Assembly: GCF_964213995.1 (NCBI RefSeq)
Contig: NW_027590452.1
Coordinates: 248,001 to 312,000, forward strand
Direction of reading: 5' to 3'
Source: Mustelus asterias
Lineage: Eukaryota
Length of the DNA: 64,000 nt
Part shown: in pieces, positions 3,433 to 40,660 of the stretch
Layout: each line of letters opens with the position of its first letter
Numbering within the stretch: the first letter of the stretch is position 1
Notes under the pieces: generated by a model
The model's input: only the letters and a program-made list of their open reading frames with translations
Told to the model about the DNA's origin: nothing
Database searches by the model: none
Translations under genes and position numbers: made by a program

Positions 3433-5101
3433 TTACTGTTTAATGAATTTCAAAATTCCAGTTACTGGAAACATCACCACATTTTTCAGATCCTCTCTGA
3501 ACTGTGTCTGTGTCACTGCATAGATGCATGTGTTGGTGCAGCAACTCAGGAGTTGGAGCATAAATCCTAATTCCTGAAGAAAATGTGGTAAACGCGACAG
3601 AAATAATTTAAACATGTACAGTCGGTCATAAAAACAATAGAAGAGGAACACTGACCATAACAGGAGAAAATTTCCCGATATTGCAAACAGTATGATGATA
3701 GATTTTCTTCTTTTCTCTATCTCTGGGTCACTTGGACTTTCCCCATTCTTGTGGGTCCGAAGTCTCCTGCGGACTTTACTCAACACTACAATGTATTTAA
3801 CGGTTAAAACGTTGAACAGCACAACCAACACAAAAGGAATAGTCGGGGTTAAAATATAGTGGAGACTTTCAGCTGCTGTCCATGCTGGTGAGGAGGAGAC
3901 ATCAAGATCTACAGAACAGAAATAGGGAGTATTGGAAAGCCAATAGCTATTCTCACACATAAAGTACCAGAAAGTGTTTTTTACAGTGAATACCACACTC
4001 ACTGTTCCTAGAACCACAGTTGCCGTTTCCTCAGTGCAGTATTTTATTTTCAGCTTCTGACAAGTAATGGCCACGAATCGATCAAAGGTAAAAGTGACAG
4101 TGAACCAGACAGAACAGTCAGTGACTGCGTAAAGCAGGACGGCATGGATATTGCACACTTTAACATGATACATGAAGACAAATTGATCTCTGAAACTGAT
4201 GGGAATTTGCCTCAATACGAGGTCGATGATGACGACGAGTAGATCCGCCGCTGACATGGAAATTAGGTAACGTGAGACACATTTGGAAAGTCCACACCTT
4301 CCTCGAGACAGGATAAGAATCGTCAATAAGTTCACTGCAGGGAAGAGAGAGACAATTAACTCATATTTCAGACTGAGAACAGGAGCAGTGATCTGGCAGG
4401 TTTCTGGGGAACAGCTGCAGGATTTTGTTTTACAGAGTCCAGCCTCAGAAAAACATGGATGCACCTGTTCTGCTGAGACTGGGTTCACAGTAGGAAAGCA
4501 TCGCACTGAGGTATCAAGAAACTAAATTTACCAACAGAGCAGATCTCCAATTCCCTGCCTTCTCTTTATTTGTATTTGGGAGTCACAATGGTACCAATGG
4601 GTTTGGACGGAATGTTCCTGGTCTGGGTCACTCTGCTGTGGCTGTGCTGCAGACTGTGCATCTGAAGATATTGCATAAGTTGATTTGGAATTGGCTGTAA
4701 ATCACAAAACTGGAAATTATATATTTTATTTTACTGAGGCAGGACCCTGTAGATATTAAGGCAGGAATAGTGGAAGTGGCCGGTGAAGGTGTGGTGGGAG
4801 TGAGGAGAGGGGGTTGGTAGTGGGGAGGGGGGAGAGTGGGAAATAGAGAGCAACCACCAGGCAAGAGTAGGGAAAATGTCTGCTGGGAAGATAGAGAAAT
4901 TTTCCAATTGCATTAGCACATATGCAACATGAAGTTTGCACATTATAAAATTATTAATTGGGTCTCATGGACAGGTGCAATCAACAGAGTGAAATTTAAC
5001 TCACCAGCTACACCAACTGCAGCGAGGAGTGGGTAGTAAATCCTTTGGATATCGTGAAGTACCCAAGCAACACGAAGCTCAAGTGGAATAATCCAGAACA
5101 T
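3433..5101 (-). CDS. GPR139/GPR142-like class A orphan GPCR, two exons (5101-5005, 4334-3433), 332 aa
   Basis: Exon 1 MFWIIPLELRVAWVLHDIQRIYYPLLAAVGVA has a GTGAGT donor (phase 1) and an upstream in-frame TAA. Exon 2 follows ccctgcag and encodes NLLTILILSRGRCGLSKC, AADLL, DRFVAI, P in TM5 and NTCIY. Seven hydrophobic segments, no disruption. Confidence 0.88.
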
Positions 5102-18022: not shown

Positions 18023-18975
18023 GGATCCTGATTGGACAGTAAACAGCGACACTGTTTAAAATATGTTGTTGCTTCTAGTCTTATATCACGGAGTAAACTC
18101 AGATCAGAGGCAGCTTCAACAATAGGCAAATTGGGGGCTTTTCTCAGTGTTGCAATTGGCTGACGTCAGCTGTGGACCAAACACTGCTAGTGGAGGACTA
18201 AACACAGCTGGCTCCCTCCAAACACATTCCACCCCGGGCTGTGTGTGTTTTTCTCACTCTCTTTCTCTCTCCATGAAAGGTGAATAACATTATCAGTTAC
18301 ACTGTCGCTTTCTCGGTTAACCCTCTTTCGTTCGAACTCAATGTCCCCCTTTTTATAGATAGATCTTACTTTCTAAATAAAGTTAAAAGTGAAATAAATA
18401 ATTTACACTCATTTACTCTGCGGGTATTAATGAGTGCATCCACTGCATGAACATAATAGTAGTTACTGCTTTATTTATACCGGGGATAAGTCATCACCCA
18501 AGTCCACATTGACTTGCGTTTCCACTGGGATTACTCTTATACTGGGAAAGTACTGATTTCAATCAGTCATTATTTCTGTCCAGAAACTTCAAAATGTGAC
18601 AACTCTCAGTGTGCCTTTGATATTAGGTCACATTTAACAGGTGTCCCCTGACAGATAGGCATCTGATACAGAAAGATTGGAAGTACTGATTTATTAAGTT
18701 ATTCACCCGGGACATCTGTGGGTTTTGTGTGATTGGGATCAGGAAATGATTGGATTTATCCAGGAATAAACTGAGCACCAAATGTCACATTTCCCCAACA
18801 GTGACAATCACTGACGTTAGGGACTGAAAGCCACTCAGCTGGGGCTGCATTGTCAGGGTCATGATCTGCGCATTTTCTCTGAAATTCAACGCAATGTGTT
18901 TTGCGGACAAGGAACCATTGATTGTGGACCTGAGCCAGTTTTTGTACGAGGCCCGCGGGATCCTCATTCACTGTG

Positions 18976-19443
18976 GGTCTCAGTGCACAGTAATACACGG
19001 CGTTGTCTGTCATCTTGGAATCTTTCATGGACAAGTGAAAAGAGCTTTGTGTCTGGCTGAGATTCCCGCTGAAGTGTCCAAAGCCGGGAGCCGTATCGGT
19101 AAACCCATAACTATCGGGTCTGAGCAGATACTGAGGAGCTCGGTGTGGATACTGGCGATACCAGAACAGGACATAGACTGTAGCTGAACTCGATACAGAG
19201 TAACTGCAGGGTATTGCTGAATCTTCGCCCTCTGCTGCGTCAACTCCTGGGAAACTGAGTCTCCGTTACTCATCTCTGAAAATAGACAACAGACACGCAG
19301 CGGGTTAGAAGGAGTAACAACAACGGAATAATCGCCTAGAAATGGAAATGGGCAATGAATATGGTGATTGGCGGATTTCAGTCAAAGGTTCAAAATGACC
19401 AACCTGTGATCAGGGCAATAGCCAGAGACAGACAGACTTTCAC
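18976..19443 (-). pseudogene. V pseudogene, paralog of the V at 48001
   Basis: Leader lacks ATG; 10-nt FR1 deletion between ccag repeats causes a frameshift. RSS intact: cacagtg(18975-18969)-23-acaaaaact(18945-18937). Confidence 0.9.
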
Positions 19444-20130: not shown

Positions 20131-20528
20131 CTTTGTCAGCTCATCCAGAGCTACCGGTCTGTCAGGCTCTCCCGCTCGCCGTCGTCCAAGACTTGCGTGA
20201 TAGACGACAGGAAAGACTGGGAGGCCGTGCTGTCTGTTGGCTTCAGGTCATACAGTCCGGCTCTTTACGTCTTCTTACTGCACTTTTTCGCTTTGTCTTT
20301 CTTTCATTCTGATTTGCATGTAACCTCTTCCATTTTCTTTGAATACATTCCCAACTCTCTTCATTTTAAGCTTTTTAAAATTTTCTGATTCAAGAAATGT
20401 TTCGCTCTCATTCCCCTTACCATTGGAATTTAATACCGCGCTTGTTGAAACACTGATATTTCTGCGGAGCGGTTTTTGAAAACGGTGCAGGTTTTGGCAC
20501 GGGACCTGCCTGTGTTTTTTACACTGTG

Positions 20529-20861
20529 CCTCACGGCGCAGAGATAGGTGGCAGTGTCTGAAACCTGTACGTCCCTCACAGTCAGGATGCTGAGTTTGTT
20601 GCCTTCGCCGATCGAAGCAGTGATCCTCCCGTGTTGATCGGTTCCTCTTGTGGCCATCACCAGATGCTGGGGCGACTGATTCGGGGGCTGTTTATACCAA
20701 CGCACGATGTCAAACGTAATGGAAATAGTGCAGTTCATGGATATATTTCTCGCTTCACTGATAACCATCCGTGGAGGGAGCTGCAGCAACTCAGCTTCTC
20801 CGGTCATCCCCGTGCAGATCAGAGTGATAAACAACAAAACGTCGATGCAAATCCTGACCAT
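20529..20861 (-). CDS. TCR alpha-type V segment with leader and V in one exon (no leader intron)
   Basis: Continuous MVRICIDVLLFITLICTGMTG-EAELLQ..MNC..WYKQPP..DTATYLCAVR. RSS cacagtg(20528-20522)-23-gccaaaacc(20498-20490). Confidence 0.85.
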
Positions 20862-21639
20862 TCTCAGTTCACACACAACACCGAGATCAGCTTTGAACCA
20901 GGAGATGGAAATTAACCCGGAACCAAGTATTTTCTTCGGGTTCAGTTCAGTGCCGTGTTTATGTTGAACTGACAACATTAGGCGGGTTCTACTTTAGCCA
21001 CCCATACTGAGCGTTTCACACTGACACAGACCCACACAACCTCTGAGGACACACCTGACACGCCCAGATTAAATATTTCTCACGCGACACACTGCTCTCT
21101 ACTGGTGAATACTGGTAATTCCAGGGTGCAATTCTTCACTTGGATCTTCGACAAGTTGCAGTTCACGAGATAGTTATAAATGAGAAGAGCTGTTTCCGCC
21201 TTCTTGTTATAGCTCTTTCACTGCGGGAGAGCTTACAACGTTCCTTCTGTTCTACGATCCAACGATTGCAGTGCATTTTGCTCTCTCGTTCTTTCTGAAG
21301 TTTCATTCCACACTGTGACCAGTCCCGGTCTGACAAGAAGAAGGTCCTGATGTTAGTCCTAAAATATCGTTCGATAATTTGGGAACTTGTGCAATGGGAA
21401 CTGGTCTATCCATCGAATGTATGTTACATAACTACAGGAGTGGCAACATTGACAACTCATAAGAATATTTCAAAAAATAATAAGAATGTTTCACATCCAG
21501 AATAAAGAGGGATCAAGTGTAATTGGTCGATCTTTCTTAAATATCTTCCATGTAAAAATATTTGATTTTGTTTAGAAGCTGCCTGTGGTCAGATAAACAC
21601 CATGGGATCTGGGTTACCCAATGATTCGATTTCTTTTCA

Positions 21640-21985
21640 CACACAAACGCAGAAACTGCTGGAAAACCTCAGCCGGTCTGACAGCATTTGTGGGGAGAAA
21701 GTAGAGCCAACGTTTCGAGTCTATTAGGTGACCCTTCGTCAGATAAATGTTGTTGACGAAGACAAACTGTGCACGGATTCCACAGAAACTCCTTCAAATT
21801 TGGATTGGACAATGACTTCACGCGGAAAAAAAACAGTTTCAGGGACTGAGAGGAGGATGTACGTTCTGAGGAAGGATCATCTAGACTGGAAAATGTTGCT
21901 CTGTTCTCTTCCCACAGATGCTCTCCGACCTTCTGAGATTTTCTGTTTTTGTTTCAGATTGCAGCCTCCGCAGTATTTTGTTTTT
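21640..21985. mobile_element. Penelope-like element remnant with inverted termini (second family), each with a hammerhead-like core
   Basis: 21640-21742 and ~21862-21985 are diverged inverted copies; ctgacga..gaaacgtt on the minus strand. Confidence 0.6.
21709..21742 (-). ncRNA. Minimal hammerhead ribozyme core
   Basis: CUGACGA-A-GGGUC(loop)GACUC-GAAA-CG-UU; palindromic AACGUU stem III; stem I not evident. Confidence 0.5.
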
Positions 21986-23059: not shown

Positions 23060-23459
23060 CACACTGAGAGGAAAGACGGGAGTCACTGTACAAAAACCTC
23101 ATGCCTGTGTACATTTGCTGCAACGATCAAACAAACAGCAGACTGCAGGCAAGATATGTCAGAGAGCAGGAAATGGAGCATGCGAGCGGGGTCGCCCGGG
23201 GCTTTGTAATTCCCCAATATCTGCCAGCGGCTTTGCTCAGATTTATTGACAGTCAGAGCATAACTTATCCGATGAAGGAAACAGTCACTCAGTGAGTCTG
23301 GGCTTTATGTTGAGGAAATCTTCCGCATTGTTGTTAATTTTATGCTGAAAATCTATTGTTTCAAATCAGATAATTGGTCTGTGTCCAAATACAGCAAAAT
23401 CTGGAAAATATTCAGGCTTGGCCTGACAAGCAACATTCACGCCACATGCGTTCATCGAA

Positions 23460-25733
23460 TCCTGCAGCGCAGATGGAGGCCATTTGGCCCATCGAGTCGG
23501 CACCGACAACAAGCCCACAAAGGCCCTACTTCCATCTCCCCACATATTTATCGTGGCGTACAGAAGGCGTACAGAAGGTTCAGAGAGCTAGGAGGTGTTA
23601 AGGATTTAGAGGAGTATACGCGATGTAGGAAGGAGCTTAAGAAGGAAATTAGGAGAGCGAGAAGGGGTCATGAGAAGACCTTGGCGGGTAAGATTAAGGA
23701 GAATCCCAAGGCTTTCTACAAATATGTCAAGAGTAAAAGGATGAGATGTGAAGGCATAGGACCCTTAAAAGGTGAAGGGGGAAAAGTTTGTGCGGAACCG
23801 TTAGAAATGGCGGAGGTGCTTAATGAATACTTTACCTCGGTATTCACGGTGGAAAGGGATCTGGGTGGTTGTACTGCTGGATTGCGGAGGACAGAAAGGA
23901 TCGAGCATGTGGACATAAAGAAAGAGGATGTGTTGGAACTATTGAATGGCATCAAGGTTGGTAAGTCGCCGGGACCGGATGGGATGTACCCCAGGTTACT
24001 GTGGGAGGCGAGGGAGGAGATTGCGGAGCCTTTGGCGATGATCTTTGCATCGTCGATGGAGACGGGAGAGGTTCCGGAGGATTGGAGGATTGCGGATGTG
24101 GTCCCTATATTCAAGAAAGGGAACAGGGACAGCCCGGGAAATTACCGACCGGTGAGTCTAACCTCAGTGGTTGGTAAGTTGATGGAGAGGATCCTGAGAG
24201 ACAGGATTTATGATCATCTAGAGAAGTTTAGTATGATCAAAAGTAGTCAGCACGGCTTTGTCAGGGGCAGGTCGTGCCTTACGAGCCTGGTTGAGTTCTT
24301 TGAAAATGTGACCAAGCACATTGACGAAGGAAGAGCGGTGGATGTGGTCTATATGGACTTCAGCAAAGCGTTCGATAAGGTCCCCCATGCAAGACTTCTT
24401 GAGAAAGTGAGAGGGCATGGGATCCAAGGGGCTGTTGCCTTGTGGATCCAGAACTGGCTTGCCTGCAGAAGGCAGAGAGTGGCTGTGGAGGGGTCTTTCT
24501 CTGCATGGAGGTCAGTGACCAGTGGAGTGCCCCAGGGATCTGTTCTGGGACCCTTGCTGTTTGTCATTTTCATAAATGACCTGGATGAGGAAGTGGAGGG
24601 ATGGGTTGGTAAGTTTGCTGACGACACCAAGGTAGGTGGTGTTGTGGATAGTTTGGAGGGATGTCAGAAGTTGCAGCGAGACATAGATAGAATGCAAGAC
24701 TGGGCGGAGAAGTGGCAGATGGACTTCAACCCGGATAAGTGTGTAGTGATCCATTTTGGCAGATCCAATGGGATGGAGCAGCAGTATAAAATGAAGGGTA
24801 CCATTCTTAGCAGTGTAGAGGATCAGAAGGACCTTGGGGTCCGGGTCCATAGGACTCTTAAATCGGCCTCGCAGGTGGAGGATGCGGTCAAGAAGGCGTA
24901 TGGCGTACTAGCCTTCATTAATCGAGGGATTGAGTTTAGGAGTCGGGAGATAATGCTGCAGCTTTATAGGACCCTGGTTAGACCCCACTTGGAGTACTGC
25001 GCGCAGTTCTGGTCACCTCATTACAGGAAAGATGTTGAAGCCATTGAAAGGGTGCAGAGGAGATTTACAAGGATGTTGCCTGGATTGGGGGGCATGCCTT
25101 ATGAGGATAGGTTGAGGGAGCTTGGTCTCTTCTCCCTGGAGAGACGAAGGATGAGAGGTGACCTGATAGAGGTTTACAAGATGTTGAGGGGTCTGGATAG
25201 GGTGGACTCTCAGAGGCTATTTCCAAGGGCTGAAATGGTTGCTACGAGAGGACACAGGTTTAAGGTGCTGGGGGGTAGGTACAGGGGGGATGTCAGGGGT
25301 AAGTTTTTCACTCAGAGGGTGGTGGGTGAGTGGAATCGGCTGACGTCGGTGGTGGTGGAGGCAAACTCGTTGGGGTCTTTTAAGAGACTTCTGGATGAGT
25401 ACATGGGATTTAATGGGATTGAGGGCTATAGATAGGCCTAGAGGTGGGGATGTGATCGGCGCAACTTATGGGCCGAAGGGCCTGTTTGTGCTGTGACTTT
25501 CTATGTTCTATGTTCTATAAACCGCCTGATACGTACGGGCAATTTAGCACGGCCAATCACCCTAACCCGCACACTTTTATACTATGAGAGGGAACCGGAG
25601 CAGCCAAAGGAAACCCACACAGACAGGGGAGAACGTGCAAACTCCACACAGACTGCGACCCGAGACCGGAATTGAACCCGGGTCCCTGGCGCTGTGAGGC
25701 AGCAGTGCGAACCACTGCGCCACCGTGTCGCCC
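23460..25733 (-). mobile_element. HE1-like SINE split by the CR1 (halves 23460-23552 and 25520-25733)
   Basis: SINE tail lies left of the LINE; core and head lie right of it. Confidence 0.75.
23553..25519 (+). mobile_element. Young CR1 LINE, 5'-truncated, with uninterrupted RT domain; inserted inside a SINE
   Basis: GKSPGPDG, NYRPVSLTS, DFSKAFDKV, GVPQGSVLGP, FADD; stop at 25435; (ttctatg)n tail. Confidence 0.95.
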
Positions 25734-26746: not shown

Positions 26747-27210
26747 ATGAGACCCGGACTGATCCTCCTGTGCATCTTCATCAACATGGAGAAGAACACC
26801 CGCAAAAACCGCTTTCCAGTTGGGACTCTGATGCTGTTGATATTGTGTGGGTTTATGTTTCTATTATTCATTATTTCAACACTCTCTTCACATCATGCGG
26901 TTTGTGAGTGATTTTCTTCTGTTCACAGCCGTTCAGTGTGAGTTTCAGAGCTCCCACCCTGAGCAGATGGTGTCTCGGGAAAGGGAACGGTTTGAACTGA
27001 ATTGTCGGCTCTCCGTTGCTACAGACGTTACCGTTCTCTGGTTCAGACAAACACTGACATGGGCTCCGACACTGATCGCCTCCATTTACGATGGAAGTGC
27101 GACCGAAGGACGTTACACACTGTCCTTTGACCGAGTAAAGAATTCAAAAACCATCTGTATTGATGACACCTCGGTCCAGGACTCCGGAATGTATCTGTGC
27201 GTGAAGCAGA
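26747..27210 (+). pseudogene. Divergent V segment; V exon (26929-27210) open, but leader donor defective (ORF/pseudogene)
   Basis: MRPGLILLCIFINM is followed by agaaga rather than gtaaga; LNC, WFRQ, DSGMYLC. RSS cacagtg(27211)-23-acactatcc (weak nonamer); CRE at 26620. Confidence 0.8.
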
Positions 27211-27681
27211 CACAGTGAGACACAGAGCGGATCCGGGTGAACACTATCCTGCTCACTGCCCTGCCTCCGCTGCACGTTTAAATTTACCCAAAACTGGTGC
27301 CTTTAGCAATGCCGCTGATATTAGAAGTATCGATTTTCCATTTTTAACCTTCCATCTGGATAGAGTTGCAATATCCGATAACTGTCAGTACAGATGCAGT
27401 GTGTGGAAACATATTAAGTAAACTCTCTTGTTTCGGTGTTCCACACACACTGAGTAAAGAAACAAACAGGAAAAATAACTGCTTCTCAGACACCTCAGCG
27501 GATAGAAATGCAACAGAAAGATGGCTAAACATGGAAAAAAAGGAAGATAGAAAGATCTATAATAAGTAGATTTGTTCTTTGGATAGATAGACGCATAGAT
27601 TAGTTAATTCCGTCTATGTACGCAAGCACTTTATTTATCCCCGTATGTATCTTCATGTTAATTGTATTCTTATTTTGACAG

Positions 27682-27962
27682 ATGTTCCTTGTCACTCGGA
27701 AACATTTCAGATGTCGGTGAATCGGGTAAAACTGGGACAGACCGTCTCCCTTCACCACAATGTTACTGTCACTGCAAATGACTTTGTGTTCTGGTACCGG
27801 CAATTCACCGATCAACCTCCCGAGTATCTCGTATCCACATTCAGAGATGTAAAAGTTGAGGGAAGGTTTACAGTATCTGTGGACCGTGTGAAAGGCTTCA
27901 CTGCTCTCACAGTTAACAAGGTTGAGTTGTCAGACGCTGCGGTGTATTACAGTGCCGTGAGG
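27682..27962 (+). pseudogene. V exon with open frame, no canonical cysteines and no identifiable leader exon
   Basis: Acceptor ttgacag; SLHHNV (Cys23 absent), WYRQ, AVYYSAVR (Cys104>Ser). RSS cacggtg(27963)-23-acaataact(27993-28001). Confidence 0.8.
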
Positions 27963-28006
27963 CACGGTGAAACAGAGAGATCAGGAGCCTGTACAATAAC
28001 TCACTC

Positions 28007-31810: not shown

Positions 31811-33445
31811 AGAACATAGAACATAGAACATAGAAAGCCACAGCACAAACAGGCCCTTCGGCCCACAGGTTGCGCCGATCACATCCCCACCTCTAGGCCT
31901 ATCTATAGCCCTCAATCCCATTAAATCCCATGTACTCATCCAGAAGTCTCTTAAAAGACCCCAACGAGTTTGCCTCCACCACCACCGACGTCAGCCGATT
32001 CCACTCACCCACCACCCTCTGAGTGAAAAACTTACCCCTGACATCTCCTCTGTACCTACCCCCCAGCACCTTAAACCTGTGTCCTCTCGTAGCAACCATT
32101 TCAGCCCTTGGAAATAGCCTCTGAGAGTCTACTCTATCCAGACCTCTCAACATCTTGTAAACCTCTATCAGGTCACCTCTCATCCTTCGTCTCTCCAGGG
32201 AGAAGAGACCAAGCTCCCTCAACCTATCCTCATAAGGCATGCCCCCCAATCCAGGCAACATCCTTGTAAATCTCCTCTGCACCCTTTCAATGGCTTCAAC
32301 ATCTTTCCTGTAATGAGGTGACCAGAACTGCGCGCAGTACTCCAAGTGGGGTCTAACCAGGGTCCTATAAAGCTGCAGCATTATCTCCCGACTCCTAAAC
32401 TCAATCCCTCGATTAATGAAGGCCAGTACGCCGTACGCCTTCTTGACCGCATCCTCCACCTGCGAGGCCGATTTAAGAGTCCTATGGACCCGGACCCCAA
32501 GGTCCTTCTGATCCTCTACACTGCTAAGAATGGTACCCTTCATATTATATTGCTGCTTCATCCCATTGGATCTGCCAAAATGGATCACCACACACTTATC
32601 CGGGTTGAAGTCCATCTGCCACTTCTCCGCCCAGTCTTGCATTCTATCTATGTCTCGCTGCAACTTCTGACATCCCTCCAAACTATCCACAACACCACCT
32701 ACCTTGGTGTCGTCAGCAAACTTACCAACCCATCCCTCCACTTCCTCATCCAGGTCATTTATGAAAATGACAAACAGCAAGGGTCCCAGAACAGATCCCT
32801 GGGGCACTCCACTGGTCACTGACCGCCATGCAGAGAAAGACCCCGCCACAGCCACTCTCTGCCTTCTGCAGGCAAGCCAGTTCTGGATCCACAAGGCAAC
32901 AGCCCCTTGGATCCCATGCCCTCTCACTTTCTCAAGAAGTCTTGCATGGGGGACCTTATCAAACGCCTTGCTGAAGTCCATATAGACCACATCCACCGCT
33001 CTTCCTTCGTCAATGTGTTTGGTCACATTTTCAAAGAACTCAACCAGGCTCGTAAGGCACGACCTGCCCTTGACAAAGCCGTGCTGACTACTTTTGATCA
33101 TACTAAACTTCTCTAGATGATCATAAATCCTGTCTCTCAGGATCCTCTCCATCAACTTACCAACCACTGAGGTTAGACTCACCGGTCGGTAATTTCCCGG
33201 GCTGTCCCTGTTCCCTTTCTTGAATATAGGGACCACATCTGCAATCCTCCAATCCTCCGGAACCTCTCCCGTCTCCATCGACGATGCAAAGATCATCGCC
33301 AAAGGCTCCGCAATCTCCTCCCTCGCCTCCCACAGTAACCTGGGGTACATCCCATCCGGTCCCGGCGACTTACCAACCTTGATGCCATTCAATAGTTCCA
33401 ACACATCCTCTTTCTTTATGTCCACATGCTCGATCCTTTCTGTCC
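31811..33445 (-). mobile_element. Young CR1 LINE, 5'-truncated, near-identical to 23889-25519
   Basis: The RT ORF differs from the 23-kb copy at only a few residues; (ttctatg)n tail; possible cagat target duplication. Confidence 0.95.
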
Positions 33446-34519
33446 ACAGATGTGAGCATGATTCAAGCAATATCGATATAAAACGTTCTGCTTGCGATTA
33501 ACATAATGGAATTAAAACATATTTTATTATTTATCACAATGAAACTTGCAGACTAACCTTCAGTAGAAACATAAAAAACACTCCCTGATACATTGGCTTA
33601 TTTAAATTTCGTTGGTATACGTGTTTGATTCTTAGCGACCGTCCAAGACTTCCGTTCTTTCGAAGTGAACAATCCAGACTGGTCAGTTCTGGATTTATGA
33701 GCTTATTACAGGGAAATTCATCCATCTAATCAACAGAACAGGTCCTGTTCTAATGGCGCAGACGCGTCCGGAAACGGGGACAAATGCACTGATATCAATA
33801 CTAAACGTCAAATGTAACAACATCAAAATAATGACAGAGGCATCAGATGCAGTAGTATCATCAAAGTAATAAAACACACAATAAACTGCTACACAAAAAT
33901 CCTGCAATATCATGCAGCAATGTTAACAACATTGAGAGTCGCTGTTTCACAGACGCCGCACCAAGACCTCATCTTTCGCTAAAACTTGCAGAACCGTGAG
34001 TTCAACTTGTCACAGGTGACAACTGGAGTTATAGGGAATATCTGTGCTCACGAGTTTCACTCTCTACTTAACCGGTGCTGTACCTGCCCTGGAAGTTTTT
34101 AGTGTGACAATGTGGAGGGAGTTTTATATTTTGTCTAATATTTTGTCTACACGTGCTCTGGGTGTTTGAAGGGTTAGTCAGCCCTGTTGCTATATTGTAC
34201 TAGCCTGTGTTTCAGTTTGACCAAAAAAACTGCTCACGGTCTGTCTGTTTGAAGTGTGATGTTTGCCAAAGTGATTCACTGGTATCAGAGGAGCTGGAAT
34301 CTGAGACCAACTCATTCTCTATCAATCCCTGGGCGAAATGTGCCCAATCCCAACAGTGTTCAGTGATGAGACCAGCGAAATCCAGATAACTTTTCGATGT
34401 TGTGATCAATCCGTTCCCTCATCACCGACCCCCTTCCCCTCGCATTGAAGGAACTGCCTGACAGAATATAGTGTGTGGTAATGATGTGTAACACAGACTT
34501 GAGCAACTTGTGAAATTAC

Positions 34520-39853: not shown

Positions 39854-40060
39854 GATTTTTGTTCCGAATCTGCTACTTCTCTGCTGGCTGTGTAGCACAG
39901 AAATGCGGTGTGAGAGAAAACATCTCCCATGATATTTCAAGGGACCGTTTTGTTTCCTTTGTGGAAATCAGCAGAGATCTTGCCTTGTACGTTTGGAAAC
40001 ATTTTTTCAGCCCTCAGCAAAGGAGAGCGTCTGGAGAATGTATCCACAAGAATGATCCCA
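39854..40060 (-). pseudogene. Degenerate V relic related to the V at 36662
   Basis: tctgctgatttccacaaaggaaacaaaacggtccctt matches FR3; remnant RSS cacagcc(39892-39886)-23-acaaaaatc. Confidence 0.65.
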
Positions 40061-40660
40061 GCAGCCCCGAACAGAGGAGTTCGCTGTCAGGCTCACGTCA
40101 AACTGAGCAATAGGGTGCAGCCCTTTAACGTGTATTTGATAAACCAACCTTTTTAACACACGCTAAATTTGGAATTTTAACCTATTCACTGTCATTGTAT
40201 TTTCCCGCTCTGTTTGATATGTCGCTATCACAGAAAAAAAATCTTATATCATCTTCCCAATTGACCCCCGTCTCAAACTCAGTCTGATCATTGACAGTGA
40301 CTCAAATACTCGGAACATCTTCATCCACATTCAACACTTGCATTTCCTTCTTCAAGGCGAATTCTTTCAGATCAATTGAAGGGAAAAATGTCTCTGAGCT
40401 CAATTAGGCTCAACCTCGCTGTGTTTACTCGTCTAGCTCTGAACAGCAGAGTGTATCGCCAATGTCTCAGTTCTCTGTCATCAACAATTGTGTTTAAGCC
40501 AATGACGTCAGACCAGTGAGATCCAGTGATTTCAGATCTACCGAACATACGTTAGGAAGTGAGGTCAGACCAGCCTCAGCCAATGGTCTCAGTTTTATCT
40601 TGTTCGATATTCGAAGCTTTCGGAGACACAAGACGTCCCTAGAGTCTTGGAACAGCGGCA

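Follow-up and report, generated by a model that had tools for sequence, protein, structure and literature searches.

A Single-Exon Leader in an Old, Expanded Clade of Shark T-Cell Receptor V Segments

Introduction

[quoted passage not shown] It is neither a one-off nor recent, and the finding is wider than the earlier note on this DNA had seen. The layout, with its in-frame ATG, hydrophobic leader and no acceptor, is that of chicken TRAV1. On the best reading of the sequences, the clade would be old, would have had one origin, and would then have grown by tandem and segmental expansion. As to the route, we give a probability of about 0.5 to the reading that a single ancestral V gene of sharks underwent a precise, in-place loss of its leader intron, likely through recombination with a spliced cDNA, and that the clade expanded thereafter. 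The window, as used here, is the whole stretch of 64,000 nucleotides that was analyzed.

The available text of a 2025 elasmobranch paper describes the split leader as canonical for all antigen-receptor genes, and it serves there as a hallmark of such genes (PMC12227049). In the chicken, 45 of the 48 TRAV1 (V-alpha1) genes and most TRGV1 genes have leader and V in one exon, for which the accessible portion of PMC10972964 cites Gobel 1994 and Parra & Miller 2012. The leader intron is also absent from marsupial TRMVj, the V-mu-j of TCR-mu, which is pre-joined to D and J (parts of PMC2275272 and PMC6170632). Recombination with cDNA or deletion of the intron was proposed for TRMVj, and both routes are drawn in the accessible part of PMC2275272. 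A shark V segment with a single-exon leader is not reported in the literature searched, although subscription papers and supplements may list some, and the available portions of PMC5931798, PMC2193156, PMC12529555, PMC5278385, PMC12698447 and PMC8656973 hold no shark case.

The Window V Gene

The window V gene lies on the minus strand, with an ATG at 20861 and an open frame of 111 codons that runs to 20529 and translates as MVRICIDVLLFITLICTGMTG-EAELLQ...YLCAVR. Its parts and neighbors are the following.

20799 to 20861, minus strand: unsplit leader, predicted signal peptide, codons 1 to 21, in frame with the V domain
20529 to 20798, minus strand: TCR alpha/delta-type V domain, with Cys at codon 44, Trp at 55 and Cys at 108
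20490 to 20528, minus strand: 23-RSS, with heptamer CACAGTG (20528-20522), 23-nt spacer and nonamer GCCAAAACC (20498-20490)
20862 to 21050, minus strand: 5' flank, a candidate promoter and 5' UTR region whose homology extends over subfamilies A, A2, D and B
20997 to 20992, minus strand: weak TATA-like word, read by eye against the consensus
20972 to 20967, minus strand: Inr-like TCAGTT, likewise read by eye against the consensus
21049 to 21057, minus strand: donor-like CAG/GTGTGT, which precedes the ATG by about 193 nt and is preserved in A, A2 and D but absent in B
20260 to 20489, minus strand: 3' flank, diverged yet homologous among subfamilies, with no poly-A run
23276 to 25435, plus strand: CR1-like reverse transcriptase (RT) frame (RVT_1)
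31899 to 33497, minus strand: CR1-like RT frame (RVT_1)

The label CR1 for both RT frames is our assumption from their motifs.

The frame matches Pfam V-set at 36.8 bits, above the cut-off, and holds both cysteines and the tryptophan. Many TCR alpha chains are among its top PDB matches, with scFv and Ig light-chain constructs ranking high too, and TRAV-named clusters stand at the top in the Atlas (first match named TRAV41, 0.97). As judged by its domain, its RSS and its nearest named relatives (TRAV/TRDV), the gene is a TCR alpha/delta-type V segment. A J scan over 200 kb of contig C71 gave none, and genome searches with a J pattern and with PF09291 (C-alpha), run without a positive control, came back empty, as did a genome search for the number of RT copies.

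The 23-RSS directly follows the V domain, and a germline-joined V of the TRMVj type is thereby ruled out. Its heptamer is perfect and its nonamer agrees at 7/9 positions with the consensus. The word "intact", used for this RSS in the earlier note, suits the heptamer and the 23-nt spacer, and is slightly generous for a nonamer with two mismatches. A leader intron would sit between 20810 and 20809. At this point, the usual phase-1 Gly, the sequence reads TGCACG G/GG and AG is absent, so that the leader runs straight into the V domain within the open frame, as had been claimed. The claim that there is no upstream leader exon or donor also stands, as a leader exon with a donor was not found in the 900 nt upstream of the window copy and none shared by the paralogues came to light. 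Contigs of four runs (at most 3 samples, 1 study), compared with 20200-21700, showed no joints, but none of their listed pieces covered 31 letters on both sides of the junction, and they are not counted as evidence. The best 9-residue Kyte-Doolittle mean of the leader is 3.24, and Asp7 lies inside its hydrophobic core. Judging from these features, the gene is a putative functional and rearrangeable V segment, which may be expressed and rearranged and whose leader may act as a signal peptide.

Other V Segments in the Window

The remaining complete V segments had all been described as having a leader intron. A phase-1 AG behind a pyrimidine-rich tract is present in each of the 12 other window V segments with a V frame and a recognizable RSS, and a script found an own leader exon in 10 of these 12. 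An additional V segment outside the RSS-scan set (26747-27249, plus strand) has a leader intron of 82 nt. The description thus stands with regard to the acceptor, but for the V segment at 27963 no leader exon of its own was found.

The nonamer of the V segment at 26747, ACACTATCC, is weak. Its donor (GTGGGT, at 26847) is weakened, and from an ATG lying in frame within its intron tail (26895) the sequence reads MRFVSDFLLFTAVQC. This V segment was considered as a second intronless V and ruled out, since donor and acceptor are present; it is a possible intermediate towards exonization. About 400 nt behind it lies a V segment that lacks both canonical cysteines and for which no own leader exon was found (27680-28001, plus strand), and the L-V-V unit of this pair recurs in locus L065. 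The window further holds, on the minus strand, a V pseudogene with a frameshift in FR1 and a decayed, GTG-started leader exon read by eye (18975-19400), a heavily decayed V pseudogene (39892-40200) and, within the V cluster, a receptor of the rhodopsin family (Pfam 7tm_1) in an open frame of 362 codons (3433-4521).

The Copy Family in the Genome

Of 1,245 first-look candidates in the genome, 150 were listed as matches. Among the matches listed, at least 78 places are at least 57% identical to the window V, a count made by hand that excludes short fragments and, where a copy is split, its 3' half, and that may include haplotype duplicates. At least 27 places among them, at 81% identity or more, match residues 1-109 of 111 unbroken, and the unsplit frame is therefore neither chance nor an assembly slip. 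In at least 59 of the 78 (counted by hand, some possibly haplotype duplicates) the match runs free of stops from residue 9 or earlier to residue 109 or later. Twelve copies form a tandem array at C71:19.36-19.40 Mb.

From the 78 places, 44 were fetched and 42 counted, with the frameshifted L043 and L072 excluded. AG stands at the junction in none of the 42 copies; the dinucleotide is GG in 25, TG in 11, GA in 3 and CG in 3. The start codon is ATG at the same codon in 37, ATG two codons upstream in 4 and GTG in 1. The window V is therefore not a single mutated acceptor, the explanation that the earlier note had named as its own refutation, with cacag and an upstream leader exon to be expected in relatives; checked on the paralogues, neither appeared. 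No copy shows ACA at the junction CpG (0/38), a pattern that was considered as a signal and set aside; it is suggestive, but 2 of the 11 other mainly-CG sites are without TG/CA too.

Between the four subfamilies, the V exon is 74-83% identical (differing by 17-26%; dS 0.23-0.47) and the leader 67-85% identical (differing by 15-33%). In several subfamily pairs the dN of the leader is near its dS, as in A-D with 0.28 vs 0.25, and function is therefore argued from the preservation of the reading frame, start codon, hydrophobic core and RSS and not from codon statistics. The RSS nonamer is the full consensus in subfamilies A2 and B, and the RSS spacer is homologous throughout the clade.

On a broader scale, TCR alpha/delta-type V segments, with 1,245 first-look candidates, lie in both orientations along C71 from 7.3 to 19.46 Mb and on over 40 further contigs. 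This set is a very large, segmentally duplicated repertoire, or in part haplotype duplicates. A 107-Mb contig (G000:C14:97891534-97891689) also holds the 3' half, in decayed form, of a V that resembles the clade (56%); it is a possible orphon.

The Clade and Its Relatives

The single-exon genes form one clade, with support of 100/99 in a tree of 73 rows and of 99/95 in a 45-row tree with other vertebrates. In the 73-row tree, L025 and L028 were assigned to the single-exon group by hand, as the AG rule had picked up an AG lying one codon further on. L089_9350 was kept out of the group, and proteins P0003 and P0006 were placed in it by leader homology. Both proteins are nested in the clade. P0006 is the Chiloscyllium punctatum model GCC41311.1, and P0003 is a JGI/IMG frame that reads leader and V and then continues through the RSS. 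The leader aligns without gaps in 13/13 proteins, Chiloscyllium included. P0003 and P0006, which are known from protein, are presumed intron-free. A profile search with 1,764 candidates returned these two and one unrelated match only, searches for homologues with single proteins gave no matches, and a metagenome scan with P0003 gave no locus. The Scyliorhinus model P0075 has no close relative among the sequences here.

The clade resembles ordinary chondrichthyan TCR alpha/delta V genes (for example L044-L059 and the Callorhinchus model P0068) in its V-set domain and its 23-RSS, and it is interspersed with them in the same clusters; unlike them, its members are without the phase-1 leader intron. 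In the nearest family found (34-42% identity), TTCCCAG stands at exactly the same position in 17/17 anchored loci and a leader exon is present in 8/8 inspected loci, with an intron of 171-189 nt in L044-L058. The split state is therefore the background from which the clade departs. The sister relationship between the clade and this family dissolves with more taxa.

Like chicken TRAV1, the shark genes are unrearranged TCR V genes with leader and V in one exon, an RSS behind and an expanded family. Unlike it, they occur in a shark and descent in common is not supported, so that the family works like TRAV1 without being a member. P0131, a protein of the curlew Numenius arquata with the TRAV1 "QVQQ" motif, known from protein alone, is placed outside the shark clade and is rejected from it (AU p=0.012; one avian TRAV1-like row on a long branch). 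An independent, convergent origin of the shark layout is therefore likely, as far as these sequences go. The marsupial TRMVj is likewise a TCR V gene without a leader intron, but it is pre-joined to D and J, whereas the shark V is unjoined and keeps its 23-RSS directly after V.

Possible Routes of Intron Loss

On the favored reading, an ancestral V gene would have recombined with a spliced cDNA copy of itself, and the leader intron would have been lost while promoter side, leader and RSS stayed put. Tandem and segmental duplication would then have spread the intron-free V. Transcription would start from a promoter about 110 nt upstream, and RAG would join V to D or J at the 23-RSS, with no leader splice needed.

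Several observations argue for loss in place. The leader falls into 17 codons plus G and then 11 nt, which fits what we take to be the usual two leader parts of the IMGT layout. The leader is gapless and the clade is single. The flanks of A2 and D align with those of B under gapped alignment, with z of 6.9-9.4 upstream and 4.3-6.5 downstream, and on both sides three of the four subfamilies (A, B and D) have flanks in common, though these have diverged; a foreign 5' flank is found in subfamily C only. An arrangement of the subfamilies at several unrelated sites, drawn from blastn and ungapped counts, was ruled out by the gapped alignment. No remnant exon or donor is common to A/D and B, and the ATG is preceded, at 105-135 nt, by the weak TATA- and Inr-like words. 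Against loss in place stand the TGCACG/G junction, one substitution away from an acceptor, the leader dN close to dS, Asp7, the 7/9 nonamer, the lack of upstream similarity between window copy A and B3 (z 0.6), the unstable sister relationship and a Chiloscyllium model known from protein alone.

The majority leader of nine clade members was also compared with split V genes, both with their first exons and with the tails of their introns. Against the nearest family, leader exons reach z of at most 2.6 and intron tails at most 2.3, and one unrelated V tail reaches 3.5. In this comparison no trace of the route survives, as the leader matches first exons no better than intron tails.

Exonization is a tentative alternative that we hold to be less probable. 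The acceptor would have died (CAG to CGG), the T-rich tail of the intron would have supplied an ATG in frame as the new start, and the end of the intron would have become the signal peptide. The junction reads ACG G, one transition from ACA G, in 25 of the 42 copies, and in 21 of 40 split-V rows an ATG within the intron, 8-30 codons ahead of the acceptor, opens an in-frame reading free of stops; exonization would therefore be easy. Such read-throughs are often hydrophobic, as in MFLLQMYIFFP, the V segment at 26747 combines its weakened donor with such an ATG, and the donor-like word in A, A2 and D is also consistent with this route. However, the old leader exon or donor that it would leave behind is not shared by A/D and B, none of the sampled intron tails in the nearest family clearly resembles the leader, and the TATA- and Inr-like words, weak as they are, lie as if the leader were exon 1.

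Retro-insertion is improbable. Here a spliced, unrearranged germline V transcript would have been reverse-transcribed by a LINE and inserted elsewhere together with its RSS. The missing intron, the RSS and the CR1-like RT frames in the window are consistent with it, and for marsupial TRMVj, which lacks the leader intron, a retro origin is among the two routes that have been put forward (available part of PMC2275272). Among the marks of a processed retrocopy, loss of the intron is seen, but a poly-A tail or target-site duplication and a similar intron-bearing parent are not; the nearest intron-bearing match to the window V is at most 48% identical (best 150 of about 1,250 candidates). In 8 representatives no poly-A tail borders the gene (the longest run is 8 nt, and A has none), and the longest direct repeats in these 8 are 7-10 nt, differ between subfamilies and are not consistent. 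Shared descent extends over at least 190 nt of the 5' flank and at least 230 nt of the 3' flank. The missing marks weigh less because an old insertion could have lost its poly-A or target-site duplication. Identity between the RT frames of the window is 98.8% over 1,547 nt, whereas V exons of the clade's subfamilies differ by 17-26%, and these two copies are thus far too young to be the cause. These results go against a recent retro-mediated loss tied to the young CR1 copies that the earlier note had pointed to. Nor would the unrearranged germline transcript of that proposal be needed, because recombination with cDNA or exact DNA deletion would remove the intron in place and spare the RSS. An RNA intermediate in the loss of the leader intron is possible.

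It is similarly doubtful that a 5' UTR intron (donor near -193, acceptor near -33) or an unseen upstream leader exon is spliced in: CAG/GT(G/A) is kept in A, A2 and D, an AAG follows a pyrimidine tract near -33 in A and A2, and subfamily C, behind a foreign exon-intron unit, could yield a spliced UTR, but both donor and acceptor words are missing in B, and the unsplit leader itself would be unaffected by such an intron.

A Chimeric Subfamily

Directly 5' of subfamily C (L030 and L073-L078, for example G000:C436:199809-200553) lie parts of an unrelated V family (L079-L084, about 74% identical): its promoter, its leader exon with a GTG start, its intron and its first framework strand. An insertion of C into this family was considered and set aside: the remainder of the other family's exon is missing at 6/6 C loci, and fusion is therefore more likely than insertion. 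Subfamily C would be a chimeric V gene that could carry a spliced 5' UTR.

Implications

According to the accessible text of PMC10972964, the chicken made it necessary to change V-gene finders that require an AG acceptor. With a large shark family of unsplit leaders, such finders would miss members or call them pseudogenes. The picture of the V(D)J recombination mechanism is unchanged by the finding.

It is conceivable, though we regard it as rather unlikely, that an RNA-templated loss in a shark ancestor founded a rearranging TCR V lineage of dozens of genes, one that endured across shark lineages, is selected against regaining an acceptor and was re-promoted by fusion behind the first exon of another V; it would be a second origin of the TRAV1 layout and a trace of germ-line reverse transcription of TCR V transcripts. 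The layout as such was already known from chicken TRAV1, and the shark family is likely a second, independent origin of it, so that routes of intron loss may be compared in two lineages.
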